DNA of 60,777 nucleotides, counting the filler, from Hausera hauseri (Eukaryota), in assembly GCA_046269625.1 (NCBI GenBank). It is 11 parts of 11 records of this genome, joined end to end, with 100 filler letters (N's around TTAATTAATTAA, not from the genome) between each part and the next. Parts side by side here need not be neighbours in the genome. Positions count along the whole stretch, not along the records: positions 36,492 to 40,546 come from JBJURY010791091.1; 10 more parts are not named here. One strand, 5' to 3'. This document shows, piece by piece, positions 3,725 to 53,620 of this stretch. The notes beneath the pieces were generated by a model. That model was not told the DNA's origin, searched no databases, and worked only from the letters and a program-made list of their open reading frames with translations. The number at the start of each line of letters is the position of its first letter. The first letter of the stretch is position 1. Both the position numbers and the translations under genes were made by a program.

Positions 3725-3735
3725 GTACGATCTGT

Positions 3736-3961: not shown

Positions 3962-3989
3962 TAATATTTGTTTTTTTGACCACTACCAC

Positions 3990-4308: not shown

Positions 4309-4326
4309 TCCAATGTGGTAATACTT

Positions 4327-9863: not shown

Positions 9864-10950
9864 ATGAACGTGTATAGTTGATGATAATATCGGATTGCTG
9901 CAAAAAGAATCCATTGAAGCTGAGACGGAAATTAGTTGGTGACGATTCTCGTTGTAGAGCCTCGAACAAATGTGCGATGGTTGCTGTTTTATGTACATAA
10001 TATGTATATTCGCGTTTATTTCCTAGTGAAAGGGTTAAAAAAATGAAATTTTTTAATATGTCAGGTGTATAGCGCGGTGCACAAAACACGGGTATGCCCA
10101 CAATATCCGAGTTGTAAAGGCTTGTTTTTCTGACCGGGGAGATCATTGATTTGAGCTGCGATGATTTATTATTGGCGTTGCGACAAAGATGGAGAAATTG
10201 ACTATTGTCAAAATATATGGTGACCAATTCATCGGGTGAACTTTTATATGTTAAAGAATTGGTACATTCATTAACATATGTATAAAAGAAATATGGTATA
10301 TTAATTGATTGAGAGTCATTTAATTGGGATTTGGTGTCGGAACCAATGAATAGGCGTAAACGTAAAGTTATTGATAGTGGTAAAAATGTGAACAGGAAGG
10401 ACGATCTTAGGTAGGGATAGTGAAGATGGTATCTGTTCATGATCAATAAGTAGCATTTTAAGTTGATGCGATGAGTCAAATTTATAACAAAATCTGATAT
10501 TGTTGTTTTAGTATGTGTGCGGTGTGTGTGTATATGTTTGTCTTGAAAGAAAAGATAGATAAAGGAAAAGACATGTTTATTTTGTAGAGTAAGAGAAGTG
10601 CAGAAGAAGGTATGTTCAGGTTTGGAGGTATAGTGCGCCACCGGAGGCACGACCGCGCACCAACGATAACTGTTGACCTTTCGAGTAACTGTATTGACGT
10701 TTTTTTCTTCTACGGAATTTCGATACAATTGGTTTATCATATTGTTTTTAAAAACGATTGGAAAATAAGTTAAGAAATGAATGTTCGTTTTCTGTTGATA
10801 ATATACCTTTAAGTCAAATGTTCTCTCCTTCATCCATCGAAAAAAATGTAAAAGTAAGTAATTCCTATATTTCTCCGAATGCGTGTCGATATTTACGCCT
10901 TCATTCAATCGATGGAAATCTTTTATATTACTGAACTTTAAACGTTTCAC
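9864..10950 (-). CDS. Continuation of the mosaic ORF: SCAP-like start followed by two ubiquitin-like domains; runs off the contig end
   Basis: INVKRLKF continues SCAP SIDIRRMEL across a 1-nt shift. FIYLFFQDK..TTISDF..TLRLRLFIG and FIFLTLSLGNKREYTYYVHKTATIAHLFEALQRESSPTNFRLSFNGFFL resemble beta-grasp Ubl domains. Confidence 0.5.
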
Positions 10951-10951
10951 A

Positions 10952-13381: not shown

Positions 13382-15184
13382 CTCTAATGACAGTGTTTGT
13401 TCTGCATGAGTTTCTTCAATGTAAGTTGATTCTGTGAAATTATCGGTTTTCTCTCACAAAATTGTCATATTCTTCCTTGTGTTTTGCAAAATATCCCAAT
13501 ATTTCCGAAGACTGATCATCAATCATTTGTAGACTTGATTTTGAAAAGTTTTCCGTCGGTGGAATAAAATGCATATTGGCATTGAAATCGGAATCATTAT
13601 TATCTGACACCATTGTTAATTTAGGAATATATCCACATAACATTGTTAATTCAGAATAAAGGAATAATTCCAAATGCAGTAAATAAAGTTTATTTTCCAA
13701 ATCAAAAAATCCAATCAATTAAAATCTATTATGTACATTGATATTTTTCTATACATTTATTTACATATAAATATACAAATATATAGTCTGAGGATTTTGA
13801 TAGATATTTTTCTTTTAACAGAACATCAATTGTGGTACTGATAATAATAATAATTCGTTATTCTCGATATTTTCGTTAACAACCGGTACGTCTTTTCTTC
13901 TTATATCTTTTGCGTGATGACTCAACTAAATTTCCTTCCCCTGGTGGCAATTCATTGTCACTTTCTTTTAGAAGCTTTAGTATTTTAATAACGTTTCTTT
14001 TCCAACTTGTTTGTCACATTAGAATCGATAATTTCCTTGCACTGGATAGAAATATCAAACAATCAGCAGCAGTGTCTTATAGATTTATAACACGATTTTC
14101 TCTTGGCCACACTGTATTATCGATTGAGGAAATACAACAAAAATATCGGCAGGAGTAATACACTGGGAGGATGAGTCATATCAGAATGTATGTCAGATCC
14201 ATTCAGTTGTAGAAGATTTACTTTTGACAGTCTACAAATATATTTCATTGTCTTGAAAACATCATAATGAAATGGCCATAAACTTTGGAGTCAGTTGATA
14301 AATGAGTTTTTATTTCCACTTGTCTTAGTACCTCCATGTTTGCAGTAAAATATGATGACAATACCATTCAATTATGAACAATCAATTCCGATTTATCGTG
14401 GTAGCACCCGAATCCTCCGCAGCACAATTATGTTTTTGTGTGAAGATATTTTCTGACATGTCAGTAATATTTTATTTTATATAGATATTTTCAAACAACT
14501 ATTGTTCATTTCGTTTACATGATTGTTGTGCTTTAATTTTTCTATGTTGTTTACTTTTGAACGTTCAAAATGGTCATATATTTTACTATTTGGATATCAA
14601 CTGTACTATTATTATTATTTATACTGTCATTTATTTTAGATTTATTTGATTTTGTACAAATTTGGTTGAATCCTGTAAATATGTTTTCTTTTTTGCAGTG
14701 TAAAATTTTAATAGAAAATCTAAATAAATGATGTGTGCAGTAATATATCATCGCTGGCGATTTGTGTACATCTGTCATTTTCGCCCAATGGTACCAAAAA
14801 AACTTTCACAGTTAAGATATTAATCCGTGATGTTTGAGTTTCAGAATTATAATTTGTATATTTTGTATTTGCTTCTTCAATTACAAAGTTTCGCCTTCCT
14901 TTTTTTATTATTTCTCATTTTTAAATAACATTTTGAGTAGCGGAAGGTAGAACGGTTTGAACACGGATCTCACGACGGTTAGATATGTGTCCAATCCCCG
15001 TTTTTCTAATAGCACAACAGCCAGAACTCATCGTATGGCCACTGCTTCGGGAAAGTAGCATTTATTCATCAGCTTTCAAATCCTCCCACCTCTTCAGTTT
15101 TTTGTTTAAAAGATAAGAGTATTCTACGCTGGTGAAAGGTGAATATCCTGTATTGTTTGGCAAGTTAAAACTACACACGAAATG

Positions 15185-15284: not shown

Positions 15285-15519
15285 AGTATAGACAGAAATT
15301 AATAACTGACTTACCCCATCTAGATCCCGTAGATGAATACCATGGACAGTTGTATAACGAGCAACCTTTAATGAATCCCTCAGCTCCCCGATACGTAGTG
15401 CATACAGGATTATATCCGATGCATCAAGTGCAACAGATGCAACAAAATGTTGACGAAAATGTGATACCCTATAAACGTGAATCTACATATAAAACTGATG
15501 ATAAAAATGAACAACCATC

Positions 15520-18500
15520 ACCTATAAGGCCAGAAATAGAGATAGAGGTGAATGGATACCCAATGACGGCTTTGCTAGGCACTGGGTCTACAATTACAAT
15601 AATGGGAAGGAGCCAATTGCCGAAGGAGTTAAAAAGGAAATTACGAAGACCGACAACTACCTTAGTAAATGTAGGAGCATTCATCACATAAGAAGAAATC
15701 AAGATGGTCTTAGATGATAAAATTAAGATCGGTGAACAGATTGTAAAACATACTATAAGGATAGCCGATAATCTGACTAACGAGATTTTAATTGGATGTG
15801 ATATCCTAAACCAATTGGAAAATGTTTATATAGATGTGAGAATATGTCAACTGAAGACGTTTGGCGAAGACAAAGGAATGGTCTCAATAACAAGAGATAT
15901 TATAATCCCACCGCAATCCGAGATAGTAGTACCCGGAAAAATAGAAAGTCAAGTATTACCAAAGGTTATTTACTTCGAACCTTTCCCACAAGTCATGGAA
16001 AAGTATGAAATTCTAATCGCCCCCCATGTACATAGGGTAAGGAATGGAAAGATCCATTTGCGGATTTGTAATACGGCAAGAAAAGAAAGGCGATTAGGGA
16101 AGAATATGAGATTGGGAGAAGTAACGACCAGCTAGGAAGTAATAAAACAAGAAATATGTTCTACAATTTCAGACGCAGATAAAATAGAAAAATTAATGAT
16201 AGAGAAGTTAAAGAAGGAACCAAACGAAAATAGAGAAAAAGATAAAATTATCAATATCAATTGGCATAAAAAGCTACAAAAATGCGAAATTTTAACTAAG
16301 AAAGAGAAGCGTATGCTAATTGAGCTATTAGAAAAGAATAACAATCGATTTGCACAAAATGATTATGACTTGGGTAAAATGAATATAATACAACATATCA
16401 TTAAGTTGAAGGATGGACAAGACAAACCAATAAAAAAGACCATATCGGCTAGCATATTATAAAAAACAAACAAGAAAAATAATAAAAGAAATAATGGAAA
16501 ACAAGATAATTCGACCAAGTTGTTCCCCATGGACGGATCCAGTAGTGATGGTTAAGAAGAAAGATGGCACTATGAGATTTTGTACAGACTACAAGGCATT
16601 AAACGAAATAACAGAGACGGATACATATCCTTTACCAAGAATTGACAAGATATTAGATAAATTACATGGATCGACAATATTCTCAACGATAGATTTACAA
16701 AAAGGTTATTAGCAAGTGGAGGTGAAAGAAGTGCATAAACCAAAGACAGCCTTCTCAATTAGAGAAGGGTTATGGGAATTTAATAGGATGCCATTTGGAT
16801 TAAAGAATGGACAGCCAACGTTTCAGAGAGGAACAAAACTTCTGCTGCTAGACGCTCTACATGCCATGGTATATATTTATAATGTAATAATAGAATCATC
16901 AAATTTTCAACAATATCTAAGGGATCTGCAAGATCTCTTTGATAGATGCGAAGTAATGGGCCTAAAGATAAACCCAAAGAAATGTTCATTTGCTCAAGCG
17001 GAAGTAGATTGCCTCGGACATAGGGTAGATAGATATGGCGTAAAATCTCAAGACAGGCTTTTATGAAAAATAAGAGACTTTCCAAAGCCAGGTACAGTCA
17101 AAGAATTACGTTAAGTTTTAGGTTTGGCAAACTATTACCAAAAATTTATAAAGGATTTCAGAAAAATTGCGAAACCTTTGTACGAACTATTACGTGAAGA
17201 CCTAGACAAAGTTATTTGGACAAACGAATGCCAAAAAGCTTTCGAATATTTAAAGGATAGACTGTTAACTGCTCCTATTTTAATCTATCCTGATATGACC
17301 AAACCATTCATTTTCGCAACAGACGCAAGCGATTATGGAGTAGGAGCAGTGTTATCACAAAAGGGTGAAGACGGCAAAGAACATCCAGTAGCGTATGTTT
17401 CACGGAAACGTAATAAACACAAGAGGAAATATGCAGTAATTGAAAAAGAATTGTTGGCAGTAATATTCGCCTTGGAGGTATTAACACCCTATATTAGTGA
17501 AAATAAACCTCGTGTAATCTATACAGACCATAGACCGCTTCAATGGTTAAAACAGCATGATAATCCTAATAGCAGACTATTACGATGGGCTCTGAAGTTA
17601 CAACCCTATACATTGAATTTCCAGTATAAACCAGGAACACGAAACGCAAATGCCGATTACCTATCCAGAATACCCAGTAAGTCAGAAACAGAAAAAGCAA
17701 TAGTCGCAGCCGTATAGAGCATGGATGGATCTGTAGAGAAAATTAAGGCAAACCAAAATGAAGACGTTGAAATAAGTGCCATTAGAAAATACATAAAAGA
17801 CAAATCCATACCAGCTAATAAAGAACTAACTCGCCATTTGGCCCGATTCAGTGAAGCTTATGAAGAGAAAGAAGGATTTTTATACTTCGTTCATCAAAAC
17901 GGACCCACTTTAGTAATTGATAAGAAAAATAGAACAGTTGTGTTAACTCAATACCACGATGGACTACCTGGCGGACACCAATCAGCAAATAAAACTCTTA
18001 GTAAAATGAAACGGAAATACTTTTGGCCGACTATAACGAAAGATGTACAAGACTGGTGCGGTAGTTGTAAATAATGTGCTACCCGAAAGAACACGGGAAC
18101 AAAATACAAAGCACCCATCAAAGTATGGGACAATACCCCAGCACCATTTGGGTTTACCTCAATAGATATAACAGGACCACTACCGTTAACCCGAAATGGA
18201 AACCGATATATCTTAGTCTTTATTGACTATTTCACTAGATGGGTTGTTGCCCTATCTATGGCTGATATGAAGGCAGATACAATTGCTGAGAAATTAGTGG
18301 AAAATATAGTATTCAATTATGGAGCCCCAAAAATCCTCTTAACTGATCAAGCGTCTAATTTAACTGGAACCGTAATGCAGTCCATATAAGACATTCTGAA
18401 GATATTAAAGTTACGATCCACACCAGGACACCCGGAAAATAATGGAATGGTTGAAATATATATTGGAGATTTAAAAGGGAAAGTACAAACGGTGGTAAAC

Positions 18501-18986
18501 ACTAGGAAAGACGATTGGGACGAATATATCAATGCATGTGTTTTCGTAAATCGGACATCGGTTCATGAAGCCACCAAAGAGATACCCTTCTATTTAATGT
18601 ATTTACGGGACGCAAGATCGATCTAGATTTTAATGTGAAAACCATTTCACACTTAATGAAAGTAGGAACGCCTACAGTTAGCATATAAAATGATTGGTGA
18701 AAATCAGAAAGATTATAAACTAAGATATAAAAAGTATTATGATCAAAAGACCAAGCAGCCAAAAATTAAGATAGGCGACCAAGTAATGTTATATTCACCG
18801 GCAATTAAAAAGGGTAAAAGGTCTAAGTTAGATAGACCCTATAAAGGACCGTATGAAGTAGAAAAAAGAAACTTACCGAATATTTGTTTGAGGAAAAATA
18901 ATACTTCTGTGAAAGTCCACATTAATAGATGCAAGCCCGCTGCCAAGGAGAGCGAACTAAGAAAAGGTGACAAAGAGTTGGTATGA
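15520..18986 (+). pseudogene. pol: Gypsy pol: aspartic protease, RT, RNase H, integrase
   Basis: VNGYPMTALLGTGS (DTG mutated), ILIGCDIL; SPW..PVVMVKKKDGTMRFCTDY, RMPFGLKN; TDASDYGVGAVLSQ, EKELLA, TDHRPL; HDGLPGGH..WCGSC, IDITGPLP, GPY module. Confidence 0.92.
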
Positions 18987-20350
18987 AGCATTAGTGATAA
19001 AGTAATCGAAATAAATTCAACAAGTAAACTCCAGATAAAGAATGTCCTATTACTAATCATCATCTTGTTATCTCCCATAGTGATAGGACAGATGACGAAT
19101 TCAGAAATCGAACGAGCAAAAATAAGACATGCCATAGCTATGCAAAAAGATCTGTTAATGAAAGCTCTACGGTATAAAATAACATATTCAAAGAAAGGTC
19201 AGAAAATAATAATTTGAAATATGTTAAACCAAATGCCATCGAGATATACAATGGGAATACAAATGATACCTTGGCATGATAACAAAAGAGATCCTAATGA
19301 GCGGCAATATGATTGCCTATTCCACGCGGAGACCAATAATACAGAATGTATAATACACGACTCAGGTATTCATTATATATATCTTACACTCATAGTAAAA
19401 CAAGGAGACTACTATAGAAGTAGGAAAACAAAATTTTTTAGATCAACAGTAATCCCTACCAGACAACAGATGAAACCTTATTAGACGAAATAATACTTAA
19501 CCAAATGATAGTAAAACCTGTGGGATTCAAAAGCGGAAGAAGTTGCATTGAGATTATAACAATGATACGATTAGAAGATACTCAAAGAATAACAATAAAG
19601 CTAATAGAAACCGTGATTCCAGAAGTCAGAGTTTGCAGGATTAAAGGTAATCAGCAACAAGTTTGTTGTATGGTTACAAGAGGAAAATATACCATGTCTA
19701 TTATCTTCTGTTTCGTAAAAGGAATGGTAAATTCAGGTATCCAGTAGAACGAAAAGGACCAACAATGTTCATAGGATATAAGAATGAATGAGTACGATGA
19801 TATGCCAGAGAAGATCACGACACCATTTGTGCAGTCCTCGGCTGATAAAAAAGAGATGACTATCCTAATTAAACCCTAAGCTTCATATTATCGTCAAAAA
19901 CGCTCCATATGGGATAACGTGACAATCGTAGCAGAGCCTACCGCATTAATTATCTCCATTAAACCAGATCTTGATTTTGTAAAAGTTAAATTCAACTGCA
20001 AAAAATAAGATACGATAGTGTCAAAGGGAGTCATAACCCCTCACGACTTGGTAGTATCATGCGCAGCCTTGGATCCCGACACAAGATACACGGTCATTCT
20101 ACAATTGCTAGATGACAATGACAAAATAACCTTTACAAAAGTAATGTCCGCGATTACAAAAAGTAACAAAGTAGAATCACTATATGGGATAAATACAGTT
20201 AAAAATAAAACAACAAAAAAGCCATCATGAGCGGTATATAAGTATTCTCGCCTAGAAATAATCATAATAGGTTCAATAGTCCCAATAGTAGTTATGATAA
20301 TAGTAGCGATATTGTTTAAGGTAATACGACGACGACTCAAGAAAAAATGA
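18987..20350 (+). pseudogene. env: Env-like type I membrane protein in frame with pol
   Basis: Signal-like NVLLLIIILLSPIVIG, Cys-containing ectodomain, furin site RQKR (19892-19903), FN3-like VVSCAALDPDTRYTVILQL, TM IIIIGSIVPIVVMIIVAILF followed by KVIRRR. Confidence 0.65.
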
Positions 20351-20356
20351 AGCTGG

Positions 20357-20456: not shown

Positions 20457-20612
20457 CAGTCGTTATACATTTGATTGTGCTGTCCGAAATTGTCGTATTG
20501 ACATTGGAAAACACGTCGTAGCCTGCACTGTTTTCTGTAACACGTCTCGGTACAGAGGCATTTTCATCTGTTAAAATAATCTTTACACCATTCGTTATCA
20601 TTATTTTATGCA
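20457..20612 (-). CDS. dut: dUTPase N-terminal part (Polinton-associated), truncated by contig end
   Basis: ENASVPRRVTENSAGYDVFS = trimeric dUTPase motif 1 (AGYDL). Confidence 0.8.
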
Positions 20613-20694
20613 TGTTTTTTAAATTACACGTATATTTATACTCTCTGATTGGGTTGATGAAAGAAGAAGAAGAAGAAGAATAAAACAACAAAAT

Positions 20695-20946
20695 TTATTG
20701 AAAATTAAAATGTTCTTCAGCTACATGCCAAATCGAGCTTTTGATACCGGCTTTTCCCTTGTATTCTTGTAATTCAATATTCAGTTGACACTTTAAACCA
20801 CCACCACCATCATCGCCATCGGGTATATGAGATATTTCGCAACCGATAAAATCAAAAAATTTCGTTTTCTGCGCCGGTAAATCGACATACTGCTGTTGTA
20901 CGGTCGATTTGTTTAACTTTAAATTCAAGTTTAATTGATAAAACAA
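20695..20946 (-). pseudogene. 5'-truncated conserved Polinton hypothetical ORF upstream of dUTPase
   Basis: LPAQKTK..LKCQLNIELQEYKGKAGIKSSIWHV is homologous to 40800-41149. Confidence 0.6.
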
Positions 20947-21231
20947 TGCCTATACGTAGACTTTTATGAGATGCACAAGTATCATCTCGGACCGTTTACA
21001 ACATGGTCGAAGAAGATGATGCTAGTGCATTACCCCATGTACTCACGGTACCGTACAAGTACAGTGCACGACGTTGATGGTTGCCATAATGCAATGGAAC
21101 AATACTATGGTGCCACAACGGTGCACAGTAAACGGGCCTATATTTGTTCCGGTTGTTCTATAGTTGTTGATGATAAAATCAATTATGAACAATTTTACAA
21201 TGAGCACGAGTACCACTTGAACCAGTTTTAG
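20945..21231 (+). pseudogene. Small Cys/His-rich Polinton ORF (5'-truncated)
   Basis: Homologous to 3990-4308. Confidence 0.6.
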
Positions 21232-21413
21232 AAGTCCAAAAAGAAAATATTAATGGAGGCAGAAAAAAGAAGCAGTATTCCCTCAACAAGCAGGAAACGT
21301 CAAGCATCAACAAGACTTAATGAATACCTACAAAGCAGCAATACAGGGCATCTCAGCGGCAGCAGCAGCAGGAACCGCCCATTACTGTCAAGTCCGACAT
21401 AAATAGATCGCAC

Positions 21414-23740
21414 ATGGACATAAATGCGAACATGTCGGCGACAACAACAACGCAATTGAGACATGCTCCGCATAATGTGCGCAACCAGTTAGAATCCGAA
21501 GTGGAGAAAATCAAACAACATCAACACCACCACCGCAAAGTGCAATATTATTCACTTTCAGAATTTGAAAACGTGCAAGGTGACAGGAAACAGTGGTACC
21601 TGTCACATTGAACCGAACCGTATTCTGACAATTTTATTGCCGATGTAGGCGAAAAGCTCGAGGAGGAAATCGCCACCTACGCGGAAAAGGGTAGTGGCTG
21701 GCGAATTACAAAACTAGTCACTCTTGGCTTTATCGTAACAAAGTCGAGTGACATAATTTACCTGTCCGGACGATCATTCATACCGACACCCACAGCTCTG
21801 CAGCATTCACATGCAGTAGTGAATGTAAAAAATACTGACGACGAATACTGTTTTCTTTGCAGTATTCTGGTGGTAATAAAATATGACAAAGTGGACAGAC
21901 ATAGTGTAAATCGTCCAAATCAGTATCGGCAGTATTTTTCCTAATTGGATTTAGATGAATGCTGGATGCCGATGAAACTAAAAACCATTCCGGCTTTTAA
22001 ACGGCGTAATCCAACACAGGCAATAAATGTGTTTCGGTACAATACAATAATAGAAATATCGGCAAACGAAGGGATATATAAAAACCCCCATGTGGACATA
22101 ATTTATCGAAGTCCGAACGCAAGTGGAGACCCAATATATTTGTTACTTTTGGAGCAAGAAGAAAAGTTCCATTACATGGCAGTAACCAATTTTGACCGAC
22201 TATTAAACATGGACTACCATCAGTTTGTCCAAAAGCATATACAATGTAAATGGTGTCTTGTATGTCTGCATGGTTTCAGGTTAAAAACAACATGGGAGAA
22301 ACATGTGACGCTATGCAAGTGAAATTCAACTGGAACAACCATGTACGTTATACCATTCAAAAAAGAGCTCCGATTCAGTGACTAGTCGAAAACGAACAGT
22401 CCGGCATATGTGGTATATTCCGATATTGAGGAAATTCTATCACGGCACAACGTGTAAGATCAAAAACACGTTCCAATCGCCGTTGGTATGTTGGTTGTCC
22501 CAATAAAAGCGGGCGGTCAGCCGCAGTATTACGCCTTTCACGGCTGGAACTTTACGTGATTTCCTGCAGCGTTTGGAAACGATAGTGGAAATGGAAATCA
22601 AGCCTTGATATTGCAATAATTCTACTAGACCATTGATTTGGACAGATGAATATGAAGTGCTGATGTTCGCTGCGACCGATGAATGCTAGCTATGCCACAA
22701 AATATTACCGTTCGACGCACACGAACGTCTTGTACTGGACCATGATCATTTCACCGATCGATATTTGGGAGAAGCATGAAATTTGTAAAATTGGCAAGGC
22801 GTGCGCGGCAATTCCTGCCGGTGTTTTTTTTTTATAATTTTCGATGTTATTATTGTCATCATATACNNNNNNNNNNGTCAACACTCATAAACAGGTTCCA
22901 GGTACGCTTCCTTAATTTGTTGCAATTTCTCAATGAGTCTCTAGCAAAGCTCGTAAATGGCTTGCCGGATGTGCCGATAACATTGACGGAATTCTCCACA
23001 CATATTGCGTGTAGCAAAGGCATATTCCCGTATGACTTTGGAACATCATATGAGAGACTCCGAACAACAGAGGAATTACCACCGCGATGGACACGTATCG
23101 CAGAGAATGAATACCGGAAAGCATAGAGGTGTTGGACAGAACTGGGCTGCAGAAGCATGTTGGAGTACATGCTTCAGTATCTAAAACTGGACGTGTATTT
23201 ATTAACCGATGTGTTCCAAGCATTTCGAACAAAAGCCTTGGCTGGAGGTTGGCTGGAGCCACTCAACATTTATTCCATACCCGGAATGAGTTGGACGTTA
23301 GCTGTAAAGACACTGGATCGAGACATTGAGCTAATGCAAGACCCGGAAATGTATCGGCTGTTTGTCATCAAGTATCAGGTCAGTGCTACCGCCGTTACCA
23401 CATCGCTGCGGTATATTGATATTAATAACCTGTACGGCTGGGCGCTTTCGCAACCCTTGCCGTACGGTTCATTCGAATGGGTTGTCAACAGATAAGATCT
23501 TGACGACATAATGGTCAACGTACCACGAGAAGACATGGCAAGCTCAGTCAGATACCTAATGGAAGTCGATCTCGTGGTACCAGATGAAGTGCACGACGTT
23601 TTGGACGATTTATCGGTCGCACCATTTAACCAATATCCGCCAGGCTTAAAAGTGAAGAAACTGTTTATGACACATGAATCGAAGCTGAATTATGTGGTTC
23701 ATTGGCATCTGATACAGTTCATGCAGCTCAGTGTACGCGT
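21414..23740 (+). pseudogene. Second Polinton pPolB copy, 3'-truncated
   Basis: Colinear with 432-3724: MDINANMS.., KGSGW, INVFRY, CLVCLHGF, YSDIE, KGIFPYDF, YLKLDVYLLTDVF, YIDINNLYGWALSQPLP; ends after YVVHWHLIQ. Confidence 0.9.
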
Positions 23741-24446
23741 TTTAGTAACCAGTTGCAACGTTGAAACGGAGCAGCTATTATAAATCCAAAATAAAAAGGG
23801 CTAATGAACAACGCTTTATTATTTATAATTCAAAAAATTATCTATAAATTATTAAAAATCAATTTTGGTACAATATATACAATAATATTACAAGGTTCTT
23901 CTATTTTTCTGAAACACATAGACACACGTTGTGAATAGAATGATGAAAAGTTCATTTGGTTTTGGAACAATTTTTGATGATGCAACAAAAATGATAATCC
24001 TTTATCGCTTGATTTAATTGACGATCCTGAAAGAGTCACTTGTTGGAAAGATTGTTATCTCCGCTTGAAGTTGAATTTTCGCCTCTGAGGAAACAAGTTG
24101 TGCCCGCGACCGCGGCGTCATATGACCCAGTGGCCAGATTAAGACTGTAAAGAGAAGAATAAATGGAGATTGTAGTAGGAAAAAGAACTTGTACTCAATG
24201 GGTTTTGGTCCGTGTTAGTCTTTGGACTCCATCTATGAACGTCTCCCTGCTGTAAGTACTACATGTCACTTGGTGTGACCTGTTAGATGTTACTGGGGCT
24301 TGTGGAGTTTTTTGAGGTAGAGATGCTGTGGATTTTGTGGTGTTCTGGGAGGATGCCTCATGATGATGTGAAAGTAAAGAAGAAGCTGAAAAAAGAAAAG
24401 GATCACGTGAAGTAGACGAAACTGGAGATGGCAGTGAATTAAGAGA

Positions 24447-24888
24447 TAGTAGGGGAAAAATGCGGGTTCTCTCTCACCTGGGGTGGGGGTAATTGATAAA
24501 TCAATTTTGCACATGTGCCAATCGATAGTGCACACAGTACGTGTACTATCGGTCGGTAGTGTGCTAGGCGACGTTGCCGCAAAGCACTGTTGTTATGCGC
24601 ATTTTTGCACATTTCACAAATCAATCGTTGCACAGTGCAGTATTGATCAAATCGATCGGAACAACGTGCTTATCGGTAGTATACATCAGTGCGCATCGAT
24701 TGGTGCATAGTGCAGATGTGCAGCACACGTAAAAATGTGCAAAAATCAATAATATCGGATTTACTATATTCACAATATTGATTATTGGAGCACGGCACCG
24801 CGTGCAATCGGAAGCACACATGATGCACTGTGTGAATGTGCAGTTAGAATTTAAATATATTGATTGGTTTTCGAATAATTGCCAACTG
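24447..24888 (+). repeat. Interspersed non-coding repeat rich in ATCGAT/GTGCAC palindromes
   Basis: Colinear with 59584-60030 (both start agtaggg(g)aaaaaatg and contain tgtgcagttagaatttaa..tattgattggtttt.gaataattgccaactg). Confidence 0.8.
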
Positions 24889-29514: not shown

Positions 29515-29794
29515 AACTGGTTAAAGCCGTCCAGGTCAACCCTACCTGACGGCGTCCTGTTTAATATAAAGTAAAGAGAGCCTAATAAACCGTAAGGCCA
29601 AGTAAATATAAGCCCACAGGCAACAGTTGACCCGACACATTACCTATAGGTTAGTGATAGGTAGGACTGTTACCTCTGATTGCATCTAGCCCACAAGTCT
29701 TGACAGTCAACTGAGTGCCTATTTTTGTTCTTTCCACTAATTTGAATAAAGCATTATTAAGCCTCTCCCAACTCAAATTGGTGTAGATTGAACA
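29515..29794 (+). repeat. 3' part of an LTR (solo or 3' LTR) of the tRNA-His-primed Gypsy family
   Basis: Colinear with 39622-39913 (gccgtccaggtcaa, acacattacctatagg.tagtgataggtagga, ends gattgaaca); AATAAA present; no PBS after it. Confidence 0.8.
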
Positions 29795-36491: not shown

Positions 36492-37701
36492 AAAGGCTAC
36501 CCAACCAGTATGTAACAGGAATTTAGGTGATCCACGGGTATGATTATGAACGAAACCCGAAACAACGAAAGTATGATTGGGGCCTTACTCATTGGAGGAA
36601 CACGACGGAATGTATAGTAGATGACTGTGGCAATTACCTCATATACTATACTCTGATCAAAAGATTTAAAAATCGCTATCAATGGCAATATACAAAGTGC
36701 CAAGGTATCTTACAGGTTCCTAGTAGACGAACAATGAATGCAACTCTCTTAGATGAAATAATAGTAACTCAACTCACTGTTAAACCGATAGGATTCAAAG
36801 GTGGACGAAGTTGTGTCGAAATTAGGACCATGATAGAGTTGGAATAGGACAAAGTAATAAGTATAAGACTTAAAAAGAAACAAAGGATACCAACAAATTG
36901 CCAGTTAACTGAGAAGCACCTCCGAGTATGTTGTAATGCCCTACGAGGACGAACTATGGTTTACAGTTTATATTAATAAAAAAGGACTCAAAGAGAGTTA
37001 AAACTCTAACTCACAAAGGGCCTAGAACATATGTTCCACTCAAAAGTGTCACTGAATATGACGACAACCAGCAGCCACGTGTCATGACATCTCTTGCGAA
37101 TCTTGCACTATCTAATAAAATAAAGAAAAATGTTGGAAATATGACCGTTCTTATTCGACCTCATGCCGTATCCTATCGCTACAAACGTTCTGTCTTAGAA
37201 AATGCCACTATATCTTCCACGCTCACCTCCTTAGTTGTAGCTACTCAACCTGATTTAAACTTCTATAAAATAAAGCTTATTTGAAAACTAGGTCAATAGA
37301 TTATAGCAAAAGGCATTATTGCGCCAGACGATACAGTAGTGCCGTGTGCTGAGCTAAGTCCAAATACGAAGTATACGGTCACACTACAGTTATATAGTGA
37401 CGATAATAGGATAATCTCTAGTAAATTACTGATAGTTTCGACGAAAGCCAAAACACAACAAAAAGTAAAAAACAAAAAGGGTACAGGCTCCAATACAAAT
37501 CCACCACCATCAAAAGCAAGTTATACCTCTTCCCGAATAGAAATAATCATAATAAATACTGTATGTCCCACGATCTTCTTAAATGCACTAGCTCTTATAA
37601 TAAAAACAATCGTTTGTATACGAAAACGTCGCAGATCAAACTGGGTTAGAATAGACATGCGACGCACACCGAACATCTTGGATACTGGTAATCCAAGTTG
37701 A
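36492..37701 (+). pseudogene. env: Env-like membrane protein, homologue of 18987-20350
   Basis: NTTECIVDD, VKPIGFKGGRSCVEI, furin site RYKR, FN3-like VVPCAELSPNTKYTVTLQL, TM followed by RKRRR. Confidence 0.7.
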
Positions 37702-37877
37702 CAATGGCTTCAGCGGATTGTTGTAGACGCAATCCGAGAAATTAAGATAACTGAATATTATTCAGTTACCGCGAAAAATAATAAGTTTAAAATGACAACG
37801 ATTACCAAACCAATATGATAACCGTTGTATTATATTTAAGATTTTGTGATATGTATATGACGTTGATTTTTATAGTA

Positions 37878-38910
37878 ATGGATATTCAAGCCGTGCAGCA
37901 CAGCAAGAATTGGTACGAGAACGCCAAAAACCACCTGTCGAATGCAACCTCTTCCAATCAATACCACATCCGAGTCAACGAAAATACTTAGTCTCAACTA
38001 TCCAATGGTTCAGCAAATACCCAAAATATCAAGGGGCATTCAATGGGGAATCGATCATTGGCATTAGTCCACATCACAAAGGCCATCTAATTTCCTCTAC
38101 CAGATTTGATCAGCTTCCCGAATAAATTCCACAGTTAATATTTATGATATCATCGGTATGTTCCAGATAAAAATGAAGGACATCAAAACAAATCATCAAA
38201 GGGAACTAACCAATTTGGACCCAAACCACGGAGTGACACTCCAATTCGATTTAATCAAAAGAAATACTCTCCAGATTCTCACATTAACCAATCGAATCAT
38301 GCTTGGAATCGAGTTGATAAAGGCAGAATCCATTTGGACAACACCCCCACAAGGAAAGTGTTTCAACCTAACGAAACGTGACTATCTAAAGTATACTGAC
38401 AAATCATACCGACGAGTGCCACAAATTTTTAACGAAGATATTGTAGTGGTTGCAGTTAACTTGGCATACAATCAGAATAACCAGCTGACGCCGTTAGAAT
38501 GCTCGGTAATAAACCTTCAAGGAGATACTCTGTTCTATACGATGATAACCCCAAGACAAAGAATCAATAACTTTGACTCCCATATTACAGGACTCACCGA
38601 AAACAACATCAACAATCAAATGGACGCTAATTTATCCTATCAGATTTCAGCCGTTTCAAATGATAAGATGGTCGTTGGAGCCGGCGTACTGGAGATGTTA
38701 CAAAAACATCTCTGTGCGTTACGACGAATTATTGGAGTTCGTGATGTGCTCTATCATGAAGAAATAATTCGGACGTATAAACTGGAAACGAGGACTTACA
38801 AGGAGTTGGCTAAGAAATTCTATGAAATGAAAGGTATGTCACTCCGCAGTATGGCACTGGTGCAATGTTACCATGCTTATATAATACTTTGCGATGGGAC
38901 GATGAGATAA
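37878..38910 (+). pseudogene. Accessory ORF with DEDDh (REX4/ISG20-like) exonuclease fold, catalytic D/E absent
   Basis: DIVVVAVNLAY...ECSVINLQGDTLFYTMITPRQRINNFDSHITGLTENNI...KMVVGAG...VRDV parallels REX4 ALDCEMV..RVSIVN..G..VYD.YVKP...V.DYRT.VSGI...ILVGH...IRDT. Confidence 0.65.
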
Positions 38911-39621
38911 TAAATAAAACTACGGCCTCCAACAAGGTACTAAAAAACCACTAGAAGCATCGTCAAAAAGAAGGATCGAAATAGAAGTAATAATATACGG
39001 CGAAATCTTTAAACCTGACGGACTCGGATACAAAGCTTCTTCCGGTAAAACAATTTTTCTCTCGCTTCCAACCAGTCAATAAAATGAGTCAATTTTCTTC
39101 TCGCCCCCGTCGACTGATCAGATCTAATCCCAGAAAATCTAAATAGAAATTAAAAAACAAACAGACAAACAATTACCTACTCCTGAATTAACGTGAATTG
39201 ACATAGCTAAATGTGCAAATAAAGCAACGAAGCAATTATTACCTTCCTTCGAGTTATTTGACTTGCTTTCGAGTGATTTGAATGTAAATATTGATATTTG
39301 ATTAGTAATTATTGTTATGTACAAACCTATTATTTATGGTAGACAAATCCACAAAAAGGTATAAATACTAGTGTAAAATCATAGCTGTATGAATAATTTT
39401 GAAACTCACTTATTACGTGACGATTCCAAAGACACTGTCATTTGCTTTTTCTGTTTCACGTAAGTAATAATCTATTACTATTGTTACTGCGGTTATTGTA
39501 ATTTTATTTGGTGTCATTGTAATTTTATGTTTGGATTTCTTCATATTAAACACTATTGTTGTCACATTTTGCATCTTTTTACTATTGCAATTTAATAATA
39601 AGTAACTAAGTAATACCCTAA

Positions 39622-39913
39622 GTAAGTTGGTTACACAAGCCGTCCAGGTCAAACCTACCTGACGACATCCAGTATAATAATAAATAAAGAGTGCAAAATA
39701 AACTTTAGGGTCTAGTAAATTGGAAATCAGCCTCTGAAGCCACTCTTACCCAACACATTACCTATAGGATAGTGATAGGTAGGATCTACGCGTCTGTCTT
39801 GCACTGTTTGAAGTATCTGAAATTTGTAAAGAAAGCAACTTTGTTCTTCTCGCTAATTTGATTAATGTCCAATTAATAAGTCTCTCTCAACGCGAATTAG
39901 TGAGGATTGAACA
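39622..39913 (+). repeat. LTR, 3' part (5' boundary uncertain, possibly from ~39310-39480)
   Basis: Homologous to 29515-29794; ends TTGAACA 2 nt before a PBS. Confidence 0.75.
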
Positions 39914-39915
39914 AC

Positions 39916-39933
39916 TGGTGCCGTGACCCGGGA
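39916..39933 (+). promoter_or_regulatory. Primer-binding site, tRNA-His
   Basis: TGGTGCCGTGACCCGGGA vs the tRNA-His 3' complement TGGTGCCGTGACTCGGAT. Confidence 0.8.
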
Positions 39934-40075
39934 CATCTCTTGATTTGCATAAGTAACAACTAAGGAAAGAAAGATTAAGACCATCAAAGGTACAAGATAT
40001 CAGGAAAACCATACTTCAGAAGATAACGGACCACACTACGGCTTAGAATATTTGGATAACTTATTTGAAGACGAA

Positions 40076-40546
40076 ATGGCGGCAAATCAGAATGTAAATA
40101 TAGCAGAACAATATGTCCAATCAAAAGCCGATTATAAACTCCCCTATGAAGAAATTTTCAGGAAAAGAGGATATACAGGGTTTTATGATGGAGTATGAAG
40201 TCTATTCAAAAAGTTTCGGATGAGACGATAAGCAAAGGATGGAACGCCTACCTCTTCATCTAAAGGGAACGGCGTTGGCAATTTATTTCCAAATGCCCGA
40301 CGATAAAAAGAAGGACTGGAAAAGTATAAAAGAAAGGATGCCTCAGATGTTTCTAGTTGATCCCTCTCGAAAGGGGCGAATAGAAGAATTCATAAGGAGG
40401 AGGCAATGTAAAGATGAAACAGTCCAAGATTTCGTCTGCGCCTTGGAGAAACTAGCGGCCAGAGCATACCCAGACGCCACGATAAGGAATAATGCCCTGT
40501 TAGCTCAGTTCCAATACGGATTAGAAGAGAAGTTAAGGACAATAAT
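40076..40546 (+). pseudogene. gag: Gypsy gag N-terminal/capsid region, truncated by contig end
   Basis: KFSGKEDIQGF..RLPLHLKGTALAIY..EFIRRRQCKDETVQDFVCALEKLAARAYP..QFQYGL. Confidence 0.85.
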
Positions 40547-45776: not shown

Positions 45777-48700
45777 AAAAATAATCTAATTTTTTTGCTC
45801 GTAAAAATTTTTCGTCTTTTTGTTCTGATTTGTATTCTGGAGTTTTCTCCTTTAGCGGTGAAAGTTTTAACGCGATTTTCCTGATTCCATATATATTGCT
45901 CAATGAATTTTCATCGATGCACCATTGGGCGTTAGACGTAGGCGTTAGGACAGCAATCAACGATAAGGCTACTATTATCTGTGCATAAGATACTGGTCTA
46001 GCGGCAATCGACGAGGTCTTGTTTTGTCGCGGTCTTAGATTATAGTGTTTAGCTGGTCTTATATCTGCTTTAACTACTGTTTGGGTTGACACGACTTCCT
46101 CTTTACCGTTTTTGTTAACATAGACCGTGGTCGGTGTTGTGCGGACGATTTCGTATGGTCCTCTTTCGGTACGGGTTAATTTCAAGGATGTACCTTTCTT
46201 CGCGACCGGGTAATGTATATAGATACAATTTCCCTTTTCCAGATCATGGGGCTTGGTCTTTTTGTCATATTGTTTTTTAAATTGTTCCTGGTATTCAAGT
46301 GATAATGTTTTGCAACTTCCCAACACTTTTGCAATCTTGTTTGTAAGACTTTGGCGAAGTTTTGTGCTAGATCCTTGAGGTTTTTTCCGTATGTTGACAT
46401 ATCTAGATCTGTGGGTAAGATTGCTTCTCGTCCGAACATCATAAAGAACGGAGTGAATCCTATTGCTGGATGCGGGGTGGTATTGATTTCGAACTGGGTT
46501 CCTTCTAGGAATTCGTCCCAATCCTTTTGGTCTTTGGCCACTACTGTTGGTAGTATACGAATGACTGTTGCGTCCATTCGATCGACCATTCCATTATATC
46601 AGGGGTGGTACGCGGTAGTGGTTAATCGTTCGATTTCGAATATCTTAGTAATTTTTTCGAATAATTCACTTGTGAAGTTCCTTCCTCTATCCGTTACGAT
46701 TTGTTCTGGTGGTCCGTATCTGCAGATAATTTTCCTTACCACCGCGTCGGCTAAAGTTTCTGCCTTTTGATCTAATAGTGCCACCAGCTCGACGAAATGT
46801 GTTAATCGATCCACGCAGGTCAGAATATATCTGTTATTTTTGTGAGTTTTAGGCAAAGGTCCCACTATATCCATAAACATAGCTTGCATGGGCCTATCTG
46901 GTACGTTTATGAGTTTTAATTCTGCCACGTACCCTTTCGTTTTCCTTTGCTTTGTCTAACAAACTTCGCAAGCACCTACCCAATTCTTTACATCAGTATG
47001 AATGCTTGGCCAATAGTATTTATTTAATATCCTTTCAAAGGTCTTCTTCCAAGACATGTTTCCACCTAAATATGAATTATGTTCGGCTATAAGTATTTCG
47101 ACACGTAATCCTTTTGGAATAACTATTAGTCTTCTCCCTTTTCGTTCGTAATATAGAATATTATCTTTGTTCGATGCGCGATATTTATGTCCGTGTTTCT
47201 GTAGATGCTTCTTTAATTATCGTCCTTTGGGCATTTTGCCGTTTTGTTCGAACTCAACAATTTGCTGAATAACCTTATCTTTAGCTTTTTCTACGGTGAT
47301 TCCGATCGTTTTATCCAGGGTTAGGGTTCTTTGACGTTCAATTATTCGTTCGAGCTGCGTTTCCTTAACTGTGGTAATCCCACTGGTTTTTGTCTTTAAC
47401 CTTGATAGTGCGTCGGCGTCGACATGTTTAGTACCTGGTTTGTATTGGAATTCAATGTTATATAGTGAGATTTCATCGATCCAACGGTTTAATCTACATG
47501 TTGGATTATTAGCTTGTCCCTTCAATGTCGTGACTGCTTTGTGGTCGGTCACTATTATAATCTTTTGTCCATAGACATAGACATTAAAGTATCGTAGTGC
47601 TTCCTTTACGACTAACGTTTCTAATTCAGTAACCGAATAATTCTTTTCAGCTTTTTTAACGAGCGTCCTCCATAGGCTATTAGATGGTCTAGTTCTTCAT
47701 CTTCTCGTTTCTGAGCTAATTCGTATCCTATACCTTCTTTACTTGCATATGTTTTAATGACGAATGGTAGGTTAAAATCAGGGTATGTTAAAACTGGTTT
47801 GCTTGCCAAATCCTCTTCATTTCGTCGAATGCTTTTTGTTCCAATTCCGTCCATCTTCACATAGTTACCTTTTTGAGTAGGCGATATAGTGGTGCGTTAA
47901 TTTTCGAATTATCTGGTACGAAAGGGGCATAATATCCACATATACCTAACCAATGTCTTAACTCTTTTTGATTCTGCGGTTCCATACAATCGGATATTTT
48001 ATTTAGCGGGGAATTATCCGGTTTTGACCCTCCTTCTCCAACTATGTGTCCGAGGTACGATACTGCCTTCTGTGCCCATTTACATTTCTTTGGATTTAGT
48101 TTCAACCCTGCTTGTTCTAGTCGCATGAGTGTATCCTCAATGTCCTTTAAGTGTTCTTCTTCTGTTTTTGATGCTATCATTATATCGTCCAAAATCGCGA
48201 AAGCATAATCAAGTCCTATGAGCATTTTATTCATCGTTCTAGTAAAAATGGCTGGTCCTGTAATGATGCCGAAAGGCATAACATTAAATTCGTATACGCC
48301 ATCGTGTGTTTCAAACGCTGTCTTATATCGATCTTCTTCTTCGATTTCCACTTGCCAGTATTCTGATTGTAAGTCGAGAGTGGTAAACCATTTCACTCCT
48401 GATAATCTGTCTAAAGCTTCATTTACTGACGGTAGGGGAAACGAGTCTTTCACCATCAGCGTGTTTAATACACGATAATCTATACAAAATCGATGTTTTG
48501 TAGTTCCTTTCTTTTTAACCATAAGCATAGGTGAGTATCATGATCGGCAGAATGATCAAATTATATCGGCATTTAACATTCGTTCTACCTCTTTAGTTAT
48601 TTCTGGTCTTAGTGAATGGGGAGATGGGTATCATTTGGACATTTTTTGTTCTTTTAGATCGATTTCATCATTCGAACCGGGTTTCTTCCTTAATGAGATT

Positions 48701-49280
48701 GTTAATCTCAGGGCTTTTGCTCTGCCTATGTCTTCCTCATTTCGTGCGATTATTGAACGATATTTACATAGTAATTCGTAGAACTTGCAATACGCCTCAG
48801 GAGAGAATTTGGTTTCAACGTGAGGTGGAAATTCAGCGAACTTATATGGCTTTTCCTCTATTATTACTGCCGATACTCTGCAAATGTGACCTAAAGTAGT
48901 GTTAGCATGCAGTCTTACGGAAATTCGTACATTGTTTATCAATCTGATAGGTATTCGTCCCGTCACTACTCTACATAAAATATTACTAAACATGAGGTTT
49001 GGATCGATATTTTCTTGAGGTTCAAAATATACCGACAGATCTTCGTCTTGACGAATCTGTGCAAAAATTATCATTTCGGTCCTGGGAGGAATGTCTTCAT
49101 CTTCTGGAATCCATACTTCGCCCGATTTTCTTTCCTTTATTACTTTTGTCCCTTTTATTGGTTCGAGCTTAATTAATTTCCCATTATGCACATCGATTGC
49201 CATGCCTGGTATCTGTTTCAATATGTCACAACCTAGTACTACATCGTCCGTTAACTGATCCATTATCGCAAATTCGTTGG
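45777..49280 (-). pseudogene. pol: Gypsy pol (C-terminal half of PR, dUTPase-like spacer, RT, RNase H, integrase) running into a signal-peptide-led env-like start
   Basis: VVLGCDIL; RFCIDYR, VMPFG, AILDDIMI; TYASKEGIG, TDHKAV; MDIVGPLP, TDRGRNF, TTAYHP; GPY; HYNLRPR then IIVALSLIAVLTPTSNAQW. Confidence 0.9.
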
Positions 49281-49289
49281 TGTGGAATG

Positions 49290-50103
49290 TTCTACATCTT
49301 CCTTTGATTTAGTATTTGTGTGTAATTTATTTGTATAACGTTTTCCGGCTGTCTTATTAAACTTTAACTTTTTGATTTTGATGAAATTACAATCTCTCTA
49401 AGAAGGTGGGCTCCATACCACAACTGAACTTCGAAACGTGCAAGCACCATCATGAATGTGACACTTGATTTTCATTGAATAGTTTGGTAACACTATGAAA
49501 CATCGCTTTTAGGGATCTTAACGCGGTTTCGTAAAAATCTACGACTACTATTCCTCCTTCTTTTCTTTTCCCGGTGTCGTATTCTGCTCCAACACTATAA
49601 CCGGTGTGCATGTTCAATTTTCCAACTGCCACTTTGTAGGCTCTGATTATCTTTCCTTATTGAGCTTCCAACTCCATACCATCCCAAACCATTTTTCCGG
49701 TTATGCGGGCTCCTAAACAATGTCGTCTGTCCACGTTCATTGGAATTAATGGGATAATTGGTTTGATTGTTGACGAATGCCCGTGCATATTACCACAATG
49801 GAAAATGCTGCGAGATCTCTGTATCATGCATTCAGTCGCATCCATCGCAATTAATTCACGTTGCTGATATAATATATACATTTTTTCTGTTGTCTCGAGC
49901 TTATGAGGTCTCGCATCTTCGCATGTTTCTAAGTCCATCAGGGAGTATTTCTGACCCACCTTAAATTTGTCGCAATCATATATAGTGACTGCTCCTACCT
50001 GCTTTACTAGCATCATTATCGTCAGCAAGTTAATCAACCAATTGGATTCGTTTCCTTTGTTCGGAGAGATATTTCGTATCATGTCCTCTAACTTATTAGT
50101 CAC
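49290..50103 (-). pseudogene. env: Chuvirus-like (class III) envelope glycoprotein, N-terminal part
   Basis: Signal WLINLLTIMMLVKQVGA then IYDC..YSLMDLETC...YQQ...ECMIQRSRSIFHCGNMHGHSS...HC....TG, the Cys/HCGxH pattern of Chuviridae G and related retroelement envs. Confidence 0.7.
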
Positions 50104-50249
50104 TTTTGTATTATCCTCTTTTTCAAATAATTTAATCCATCTTATTTCTTTAGGTACCCTTCTTGCAGCTTTTCTGGCTAACCCAATTGCCTCCTATCAA
50201 TCACGGTTTCGTCAGGGAGGGTACTTTTAGATCATTTAAATCGTGAGGT

Positions 50250-53200
50250 CTACATTGTCCGGGCTATATTATATATCAGTCTTTCCTTTTCGGATAATCT
50301 GTCTCCTTGGAGTCTGGTATAATTCACTATCCTTATTAGATCTTTCATTAGTTCAATCAGTTCTTCGTTATCGGAACTCGGGGTTGGTACTGATAGTTGT
50401 CTCAATTCTCTAATCAGATCCGCGTTATAGTCGATTTCTTTTATTTTTCTTGGTCTTCCGACCGGCCGTTTCGCTTTCATCGGTGGTGCGGTTTCGCTCA
50501 GCGGAACTAAATTCTTATCGTATTGCGGGTTATCCTCATCAGTCTGTAAGTATTCGAAGTACATTGCAGCATCCTGAATCACCATGATTCTTCCAACGCA
50601 ATGCTCTGTATGCGCATTTCTCATGGCTTCGTCTTTGGTTTGCTCACTGGCGATTATTGCTATTATTCGATTTTCCTCGAAGGGTATAATCCCTACGTCT
50701 ATTAAGGATTCTAGCTCATCTAGTATCCTACCTCTGAAATATAGCCGATAACTAATTCCTTTCCTATCATCCTTATCCATTATCCGCCGTTTTATATCCG
50801 CAACAGTGGTATAGGTAGTTCACTCAAATTCCTCGTCATCCATCCGTTCGGATGATGTCTTCACTTTAAGTTCCGTTTCTGGTTTATTTCTTAGCAATTT
50901 AGCGTATTCTTTTATTAGAAGTTTGGGTACAGCGCTGTATGCAGTGTTTTCACTGGATAGCTTAGTCAAAGTTGGAATTAATTTCCTTAACCTAACTTCA
51001 CTTATATTTATTTTCAACACATTGCTCCGTTCCTTTTCGGCTATTGTGGGGTCAAGTAGAATTTGCACGTCGAATTTCGTCTTCTGGGTACCAATAGGTG
51101 ACTCCAAGATTTGTATTGGAGTTCTTTGGCTTTATTCGTTTAGACCTTGGAGATATTCATCCCACTCGGTTTCATCATCTGCGTCAGGTAACTCGTAGGT
51201 TATTAGTACCGTATGTCCGACCTGGACTCGAGTAATTCTCTTATCTGCGGTTGCAATGTTTTCATTATGGATACCCTAAATCCGTATCCATTTCCGCACG
51301 CTTGCTGTATCAGTGTTATTAATCGGCACATTTCTTCTGGTTGTGTCAGGGCTTTCTCCCGATAATTAGTCATTTCTGCGATTCTGTCTCTTTGCCATCT
51401 CTGTATAAATTCCGTTTTATCGTTCATTTCAGATTCCGTAAGGGAATACTTGTTCTTGTAAACTTCTGTTTCTCTCAGTAATTCGTTTAGCTCGCATTGT
51501 CTTTTCTCGGAGCGTAACCGGGTTTCTTTTACCAGACGTATTCGATTTGTTAGTCGTTTGACTACTATTTCGTCAATTTCTGCCATTTCTGTTAATAGTA
51601 GGATTAATTTATGCATTTGATTTAATGCTTCAGCGTCCGGATCTATTGCGTCCATTAACCTGCCTATAAACTTGGCTTCATCATCCGTTAACTGAAGATC
51701 CTTCCGAATTTCCGTTAGTTCGGTTTGGCAATGTAGGTCGAAACCTGGCGTCCATTCTGCTGGATTCTGTAGATATTGTAGTGTTTGCAGCAGAACAATT
51801 CGGTGATCGTTACATACTTCTAATGTTTCTATTTCGTGGGCTGAGATTTCCTTCAACGGTTTCTGCATTAGGTTCTGTATCCCTTCCAAACGGATGTTCA
51901 CTAAACTCCGCTGGAGGTCAGTGTTATTTGATCTTGATTTTTGATCATAAATTCAAGTTCTCGGAATGATTCGAATTTACTTCGCAATTTCGCTTCGTCT
52001 TTTATCGTACAGATATCTATTAACATTTCTTCCAATTGGTGTTTCATTATCGACTCAGCCACGGCGAAATCTCTCAATCTTTCATTTATTATCTCTGCTA
52101 TGGAAGGTAGCAAATCTATCCACTTCTTTAGTTGTTTAGATATTGCCGGTTTAGTGTAGATTATTTCGTCTAATGTCTCAAAAGCTTCTTTTAGTTCGTG
52201 AACCGGTCCTCGTACAAATTCTATGATCTGTTTCATGTAGTTGAATTCTTATTTATATTCATCTAACTCAAGAAGGCAAGTGCGCATTATTCTCTGTGCT
52301 TCTACCTTTTCAGAGTGGACTACACCAATCCTTAATTCGTTGATTTTGGTTCGTATTTTATTTTCTATTTTAATGCGTATTTCCAAATCTAGATATTGTC
52401 GAGGGCTACCCTTTATCAGGCTGCATATTGCTACTAAAGAGGGGATACCAATTGGATCTATACCCAATATTTCTAGGTCAGCGTTAATCAATTCATATAC
52501 TGGCTTGTTATGAAGATGAGAAATTATTGCTTCTTCGATCTCGTATAGCAATCCCTCTAAATTACGTTTTACGCGTTTTAGTTTTGGGTTGTTCTTAAGT
52601 GTGCATAACAGTCCTTGCGCTTGATTGACCTGCTGAAGAAACGGTTCATTTTTATTCCACCATTTTTCGTAAAATCGATCCCACTCTTTATCCACAGTTC
52701 TATTTTATTTTGCCCATTTTCTATCAAGTTCTGCGGCATTTCTTGCAGTTCATACGGTTTCTGAGAATCGGGTTTAAGCTTTATATATAGCTTTTCTATA
52801 AATTGTTGTTCTTTTCCAGAAATATCCAACTGTTTGCCTATTTGCTGGAGTTTTTGCAAGCTCTCTTGGAGCGTTTCTGGGTCATTCAGTGCGTCTGTTA
52901 TTTTAGCTAGTTTCTTTGCATTTTTCCAAGATTTTCTAATTTTCTCGAACTTTACAGATTTTCCTCTTCTGATTCCTCTTCGCTAACTGGTAACGGACAT
53001 ATTTTATTAATTTCATCAATATTCGAAATATTTGTTGTTTTCGAAGCGTCTTGAGTTATTACGGGAGTATTTAACTCTGTTTCATCTCTTAAAGTGATAG
53101 TGAAGCCTTCCTCCTTTTCTACACTCTTTCTAATATGGGATCGTGAACGAGTTCCCGACCTTCTCCTAAGAGAAAGGCTTCTACCTCTATTTTTGGTTAT

Positions 53201-53620
53201 CTTAAGTATTAATGGCCCAATAAATTCACTCTCAGCTTCGTCTGTTGTTTTATCATTATTTTGAGGTGTGTCCTTGGTATCTGCATCCATGTCTACACTC
53301 GAAGACGTCGTCGGCCTTTCTTCTTTCTTCTCTTTCGCTGCTTGATTTAGATTTTTCTTTCTGGCTATGTTAGTACTTTTAGGTGCTATTGCCCTTTCGT
53401 ATTCCGTTTTTGGTTCTCTCAACCTATGGTAAACTTCCATTTGGTGCAGCTTTTCTTCGTATTCCTTCCTAGCCTTAATTACTTGTGGGTTATTAGATTC
53501 GACCATATTTTTCACGTATTTTCGTAAATCCTGCATCTCGATAATCATACTTATATCACCTCGTTTTCCGTAGATTCCTTCCAAATTATATTTTATCGTG
53601 CTAGCTTTACTAATCTCTGA
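50250..53620 (-). pseudogene. Unknown ~1100-aa helical/coiled-coil ORF 'X' with an AT-hook near the C-terminus
   Basis: Seven consecutive ORF pieces; the N-terminal ~500 aa are homologous to 24989-26550, which follows gag; KRPVGRPRK AT-hook at ~50445-50475. Confidence 0.65.

Follow-up and report, generated by a model that had tools for sequence, protein, structure and literature searches.

The accessory gene that precedes an LTR in this Hausera hauseri DNA is best read, with a probability of about 55%, as the decayed last accessory gene of a Gypsy element, likely a giant Burro-like one, whose product was likely an RNA-binding protein made of an AlkB-fold domain and a catalytically dead DEDDh domain. 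The window, i.e., the whole stretch of 60,777 nucleotides that was analysed, strings together 11 H. hauseri contigs by means of artificial spacers, each an N run, a stop-codon linker and another N run; neighbours across the spacers carry no meaning. The contig of the gene (36492-40546, N spacers at both ends) carries a broken membrane-protein ORF, the accessory gene, the LTR, a primer-binding site and the start of gag, in this order (Table 1). It holds one LTR and no pol, which is visible only on the sister contig of the window (15285-20356) and at the relative locus L006.

Table 1. Features of the contig carrying the accessory gene (window positions).
Feature	Position	Strand	Evidence or remark
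Broken type-I membrane-protein ORF	36494..37701	+	Beta-rich ectodomain, S/T-rich stalk, basic tail
Accessory gene, decayed: AlkB-like barrel, linker, DEDDh pseudo-nuclease, variable tail	37878..39055	+	tblastn with P0002
AlkB-like double-stranded beta-helix domain, metal site predicted absent	37878..38330	+	P0002 model match
ISG20/REX4-like DEDDh domain	38437..38930	+	Five catalytic columns read A, N, M, L, L
LTR	39115..39913	+	3' end firm (..GATTGAACA); start 39115 or 39318, uncertain
Primer-binding site	39916..39932	+	1 match in window, 0.01 expected by chance
Broken gag start, truncated at contig end	40078..40546	+	PF03732, E 4.2e-7

The extent of the gene was derived from its closest relative, P0002, which has an open frame of 447 aa and is 57-61% identical to the window copy. 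In tblastn, homology to P0002 begins at the start of the AlkB-like domain and runs to about 39055, with frame changes near 37990, 38135, 38875 and 38945. Since homology continues past 38910, the stop at that position is an artefact of decay. The initial annotation had described 37878-38910 as a single ORF. Its part from 38110 to 38910 is the longest open frame (plus strand, 266 codons) and contains the REX4/ISG20-like motifs that had been quoted; the span as a whole is frameshifted and falls short of the end of homology, and the N-terminal domain had been missed. A low-complexity frame from 37878 was considered as the true N-terminus up to 38380 and ruled out by the P0002 alignment. Judged by its sequence, the window copy is a pseudogene, as are the membrane ORF and the gag of the same contig.

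Relatives of the protein were collected with phmmer over 1.84 billion proteins at E up to 0.001, which gave 15 sequences. The 16-sequence profile (window plus 15 relatives) matched in PDB the proteins ISG20L2 (E 1.2e-23), ISG20 (1.2e-12) and SDN1 (2.4e-10). A profile of 13 distant relatives, built without the window sequence or P0002, matched 38212-38835 with an iE of 1e-24 among 66 window frames, which is beyond chance. The top ESM Atlas match for the ORF scored 0.93 (184/256 features), with RNase_T annotated on 59% of the members, and the PF00929 (RNase_T) cut-off was passed by 5 of the 15 relatives. The window protein taken alone had no Pfam match, and its PDB matches were weak, with DEDDh proteins making up three of six (ISG20, E 0.27). 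With this single protein, a word-based homologue search returned none of 298 proteins of near length and none of 1241 longer ones, and an alignment search found nothing beyond two proteins already collected. PHROGs, NCBIfam and Rfam gave no meaningful match, and no relative was found in four viral-contig scans.

The structural evidence comes from the model of P0002 (17-row alignment, pLDDT 74.1, pTM 0.68). This is the confident model; the single-sequence model of the window domain (pLDDT 38.8) was unusable and fold searches with it were uninformative. Residues 228-386 of the P0002 model superimpose on ISG20 with Z 17.0 and an rmsd of 2.5 over 155 aligned positions, and Foldseek, which had been suggested as a check against DEDDh families, also matched ISG20 (E 8.7e-8). 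The DEDDh fold proposed at the outset is therefore borne out by both the profile and the model. Human ISG20 and ISG20L2 (PDB 1wlj, 7yw5) are the closest in solved fold and sequence profile; unlike the gene described here, they are host enzymes with intact catalytic residues and without an AlkB-like domain.

The N-terminal domain was recognized from the same model. Residues 37-192 of P0002 match ALKBH6 (Z 12.9, rmsd 3.0, 147 aligned), followed by ALKBH7 (Z 12.0) and ALKBH5 (Z 11.2), with cupins lower at 9.0-9.6; Foldseek gave AlkB and cupin chains equally, at E about 6e-6. The AlkB / 2OG-Fe(II) dioxygenases bind their metal through an HxD...H triad. With strands mapped by eye, no HxD column was common to the family, in either intact-looking or dead members: H-x-D/E occurs in 3 of the 14 rows that have N-domain sequence, at unrelated places. 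One His on another strand is common to 13/16 rows and is Tyr in the window and P0002. The Atlas leads for the N-terminal domain were all below 0.9, and a PDB sequence search with the N-terminal part gave no match. The motif CFNLTKR, matched by eye to the last AlkB strand, was rejected since the model places it in the linker. On the strength of the model, the gene product is predicted to be a two-domain AlkB-fold and DEDDh fusion.

At ExoI the window copy has VVVAVNLA, where A (38452) and N (38458) occupy the D and E columns; the initial annotation had noted the replacement of D-x-E by AVN. ExoII has M (38695) and ExoIII has L at 38842 and 38857, all non-catalytic, with the ExoIII columns of the window depending on the alignment. 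No variant fell on the ExoI codons among 40 of 909 variant rows. P0002 shows A, N, T, L, L at the catalytic columns. As its frame is open and has the same AVN and no ExoII or ExoIII residues, the loss is not a product of decay in the window copy; nor is D-x-E restored in the nearest relative, intact as that is. The catalytic set D, E, E/D, H, D is present in 7 of the 15 relatives, ExoI D-x-E is missing in 6, and the remaining 2 are truncated with ExoI kept. The dead rows form three supported pairs, the window counted, and one singleton. The description "catalytically dead", in the sense of missing catalytic residues, thus fits the lineage of the window and P0002, while about half of the family looks intact, and the dead condition would be a state of lineages, not a trait of the family.

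On a tree of 17 rows (window, 15 relatives and L004), the dead label requires at least two changes, and one long-branch dead protein nests among the intact-looking ones; the AU test did not reject a tree that keeps the dead rows in one group (p 0.10). A second family member, much more diverged and broken, lies at 7450-8480 on the minus strand of the window. It has FVGVA at ExoI, matches the family profile with an iE of 2e-5 in the N-terminal part and 1.9 in the DEDDh part (pairwise E 5e-5), and comes after an ORF whose membrane helix lies at about 8990.

The Ty3/Gypsy hallmarks, LTR, primer-binding site and gag, are all present on the contig of the gene. The 3' end of the LTR is fixed at 39913 because a related fragment (29518-29794, 71.5% identical) terminates in identical bases with no primer site behind it. 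Both candidate starts lie downstream of the accessory gene; the C-rich motif before 39115, picked after sight and expected about once per window by chance, is a weak indication. The primer-binding site is presumably of the tRNA-His type. The gag resembles that of L001 (tblastx, E 3e-12), and the permuted order of the contig matches this relative, where an LTR with inverted termini (3033 to about 4614) comes after the gene, then a primer site at 4621 and next a CCHC gag. The earlier placement of the gene within an LTR element, towards its 3' end, is thereby supported, with LTR, primer site and gag following it on a contig with one LTR.

The single LTR between 3' genes and gag could be the outcome of a collapsed repeat assembly; a repeat pair was seen in none of the five relative loci scanned. 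A comparison with one sequencing run covering part of the stretch mapped 4073 run contigs onto it, mostly less than 95% identical, which marks the stretch as a diverged multi-copy repeat. Depth falls across 38940-39619, which together with the one LTR and the lack of pol makes two adjacent elements conceivable.

Relatives in element context were confirmed at 6 loci out of 139 pattern matches, all of the intact-looking type and from one metagenome; the one dead-type gene seen in such a context is the window's own. In four of the six (L001-L004), the same LTR-start junction lies within about 190 nt 3' of the gene, and a C-rich tract (CCCCCCGAGATA), not a polypurine tract, precedes the apparent LTR start. 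The shared junction was not seen in L005 and L006. Upstream of the gene, L002 (54-1845) and L004 (300-3999) have genes for RING-finger proteins, together with a TRAF-like gene that is complete (RING, zf-TRAF, MATH). L006 (2-9019) has an open polyprotein of 3006 aa with the fusogen PF24664, protease, RT, RNase H and integrase, ending in frame with a signal-peptide-like segment, FN3-like repeats and a membrane helix, a part that has no Pfam match. A coiled-coil-like ORF and then the exonuclease gene follow.

This layout resembles the giant planarian Gypsy elements Burro/GYPSM1 as described in part of their account (PMC6431247): a mononegavirus-type fusogen precedes pro-pol in L006, and TRAF/MATH and RING genes occur in L002 and L004, features that are not visible on the contig of the window gene. 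The GAG-ENV-POL elements of nematodes, bryozoans and flatworms, as they appear in the portion of PMC13524379 available, have the layout of L006. In contrast, the Burro account lists, in the sections covered, no DEDDh, AlkB-like or FN3 membrane ORF (PMC6431247). The Burro likeness is drawn from the gene layout of the relatives.

The ORF upstream of the accessory gene had been called env, a designation that the analysis does not support. It has an FN3-like domain at about 37300-37440 and one membrane helix at about 37546-37602 (hydropathy 2.18). It weakly matches BOC/CDO chains (E 0.043), which are FN3 domains. With the ORF that follows integrase on the Gypsy contig 15285-20356 it shares 36-48% identity. 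No match to Pfam or to the L006 fusogen region was found with the broken pieces of the ORF. In L006, a similar membrane module sits at the end of pol and the fusogen before the protease; hhalign of the membrane ORF with the L006 C-terminus covered 19 columns at a probability of 46%, a statistically weak link that is architectural in kind. The supposed env is probably a separate membrane protein, perhaps with a role in attachment. Non-Env membrane proteins occur in LTR elements, according to the part of a preprint that was available (bioRxiv 2025.03.14.642691). The present case indicates that in elements of its own kind a post-pol membrane ORF need not be an envelope fusogen.

Two further Gypsy elements lie on other contigs of the window. 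The sister contig 15285-20356 (plus strand) has pro-pol and then an ORF with signal peptide, FN3-like domain and membrane segment; its pol is 44% identical to that of L006 over 863 aa. At 45777-53620 (minus strand), a fusogen fragment (PF24664, Monjiviricetes-type, E 4.7e-15) lies upstream of pro-pol, and a signal-peptide-like ORF follows the integrase.

In the preferred reading of an RNA-binding AlkB-fold and dead DEDDh protein, the ancestor would have combined an active 3'-5' exonuclease with an AlkB-fold module that held the substrate and had no catalytic part; roughly half of the relatives seem to have stayed in this state. In the window lineage, catalysis would have been lost and the binding scaffold kept, and the product would bind RNA ends without cutting them. 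Its most likely use, still a tentative one, would be to clamp the 3' ends of element RNA or of derived small-RNA intermediates and so shield them from host exonucleases and silencing. The arenavirus domain, described in part of a published account as a 3'-5' exonuclease that suppresses innate signalling (PMC7968707), is active and therefore serves as an analogy for purpose, not for a dead enzyme. It is a doubtful extension that the fusion of giant env-bearing Gypsy elements turned more than once from an active RNA-trimming enzyme into a double pseudo-enzyme, reading RNA ends, possibly methylated ones, and suppressing silencing.

The presence of two nucleic-acid-enzyme folds without catalytic residues would also suit a structural RNP factor for selecting, localising or packaging the element RNA, in the manner of Exuperantia or a nuclear-export helper and with no anti-silencing role. 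Exuperantia, which binds mRNA through an inactive Exo domain, as given in part of its description (PMC5785220), is among the structural matches of P0002 (PDB 5l80; Z 10.2, rmsd 3.6, 157 aligned), though well below ISG20, and offers a model for binding without cutting. It is, however, a host gene with a SAM-like domain (PMC5785220), and the likeness seen is a structural one. The RNP factor is made unlikely by the family itself: in about half of the relatives the nuclease residues persist under strong constraint, and pure packaging would have no need of them.

The RING and TRAF/MATH genes beside the exonuclease gene in L002 and L004 could point instead to a decoy or scaffold that binds proteins of host nuclease, ubiquitin or immune-signalling complexes and no RNA. 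The DEDDh domain of the window is charge-neutral (15 K+R, 14 D+E), which does not favour RNA binding and would fit such a decoy. This explanation is nevertheless quite improbable, as the dead-type DEDDh domains of P0003, P0006, P0012 and P0016 are basic, and the P-R motif is invariant, kept with other structural columns in 16/16 rows.

Selection on the family was estimated from the four intact-looking copies L001-L004, for which dN/dS was computable; they come from one metagenome and are not independent. The values were 0.04-0.10 for the AlkB-like domain (6/6 pairs), 0.03-0.05 for the DEDDh domain (5/6 pairs, one saturated) and 0.13-0.28 for the tail. These values indicate purifying selection in the catalytically intact relatives. 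For the dead lineage, selection is deduced from open frames and from the identity of the domain as against the tail. The dead-type proteins P0002, P0003, P0006 and P0012 have long open frames of 447-662 aa, and each of the three dead pairs shows higher identity in the DEDDh domain than in linker or tail (64% vs 44%, 58% vs 38% and 43% vs 33%).

These data bear on the idea that selection on the dead lineage is weak or was relaxed recently, the gene being a relic that has lost catalysis and is drifting to loss. The frameshifts of the window copy and the very long branch to the window and P0002 (2.81) could be taken in its favour, but the open frames and the better-kept DEDDh domain oppose it, and the membrane ORF and gag are broken too, so that decay is element-wide; a relic is thus highly improbable. 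That the protein is still a nuclease working with a different residue set, as proposed for Maelstrom, is barely credible: the D of M-D and the R-D, whose conservation in dead members could speak for it, are kept in intact-looking ones as well and are probably structural, and no alternative His/Cys set is common to the dead lineages, among which the replacements at the catalytic columns vary.

The DnaQ-like domain is among the known accessory domains, as given in part of PMC6338049. The Juno and Vesta LTR retrotransposons of bdelloid rotifers, as well as Terminons, carry a DEDDy ORF3 with intact residues (Rodriguez 2017, PMC5408684, in the portion available). Like the present gene, it is an accessory ORF of DnaQ-like exonuclease type placed at the 3' end of its LTR element, and its DEED motif variant is likewise found in several relatives here. 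It is DEDDy and RNase D-like (PMC5408684), whereas the window gene is DEDDh and ISG20-like, AlkB-fused and of a dead lineage. In orchids, a Ty3/Gypsy ORF encodes an active AlkB m6A demethylase, according to the accessible part of PMC9289625. In both cases a large Gypsy element carries an AlkB-fold domain. The orchid domain is close to plant ALKBH (PMC9289625), while that of the window is highly diverged, lacks a conserved HxD and is fused to DEDDh.

Catalytic residues are thus intact in both previously known kinds of cargo, the exonuclease in rotifers and AlkB in orchids. Neither an AlkB fold fused with DEDDh nor a dead DEDDh domain in an LTR element was found in the literature searched, with the supplements of PMC13524379 or Repbase as places that may list the ORF. 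The natural occurrence of the fusion in intact-looking and dead versions provides a pair for studying the passage from an enzyme to an RNA-binding factor, and it bears on how animal retroelements guard their RNA from host silencing.

Other contigs of the window contain remnants of different origin. At 9864-13453 (minus strand), long open frames hold LRR and sterol-sensing fragments and a weak ubiquitin-like match, and have the appearance of captured pieces of host genes. Two decayed Maverick/Polinton-like family-B polymerase remnants, recognized by eye and 73-82% alike, occupy 1-4326 and 20457-24888. A C-type lectin-like fragment, also recognized by eye, lies at about 6190-6400 on the minus strand.
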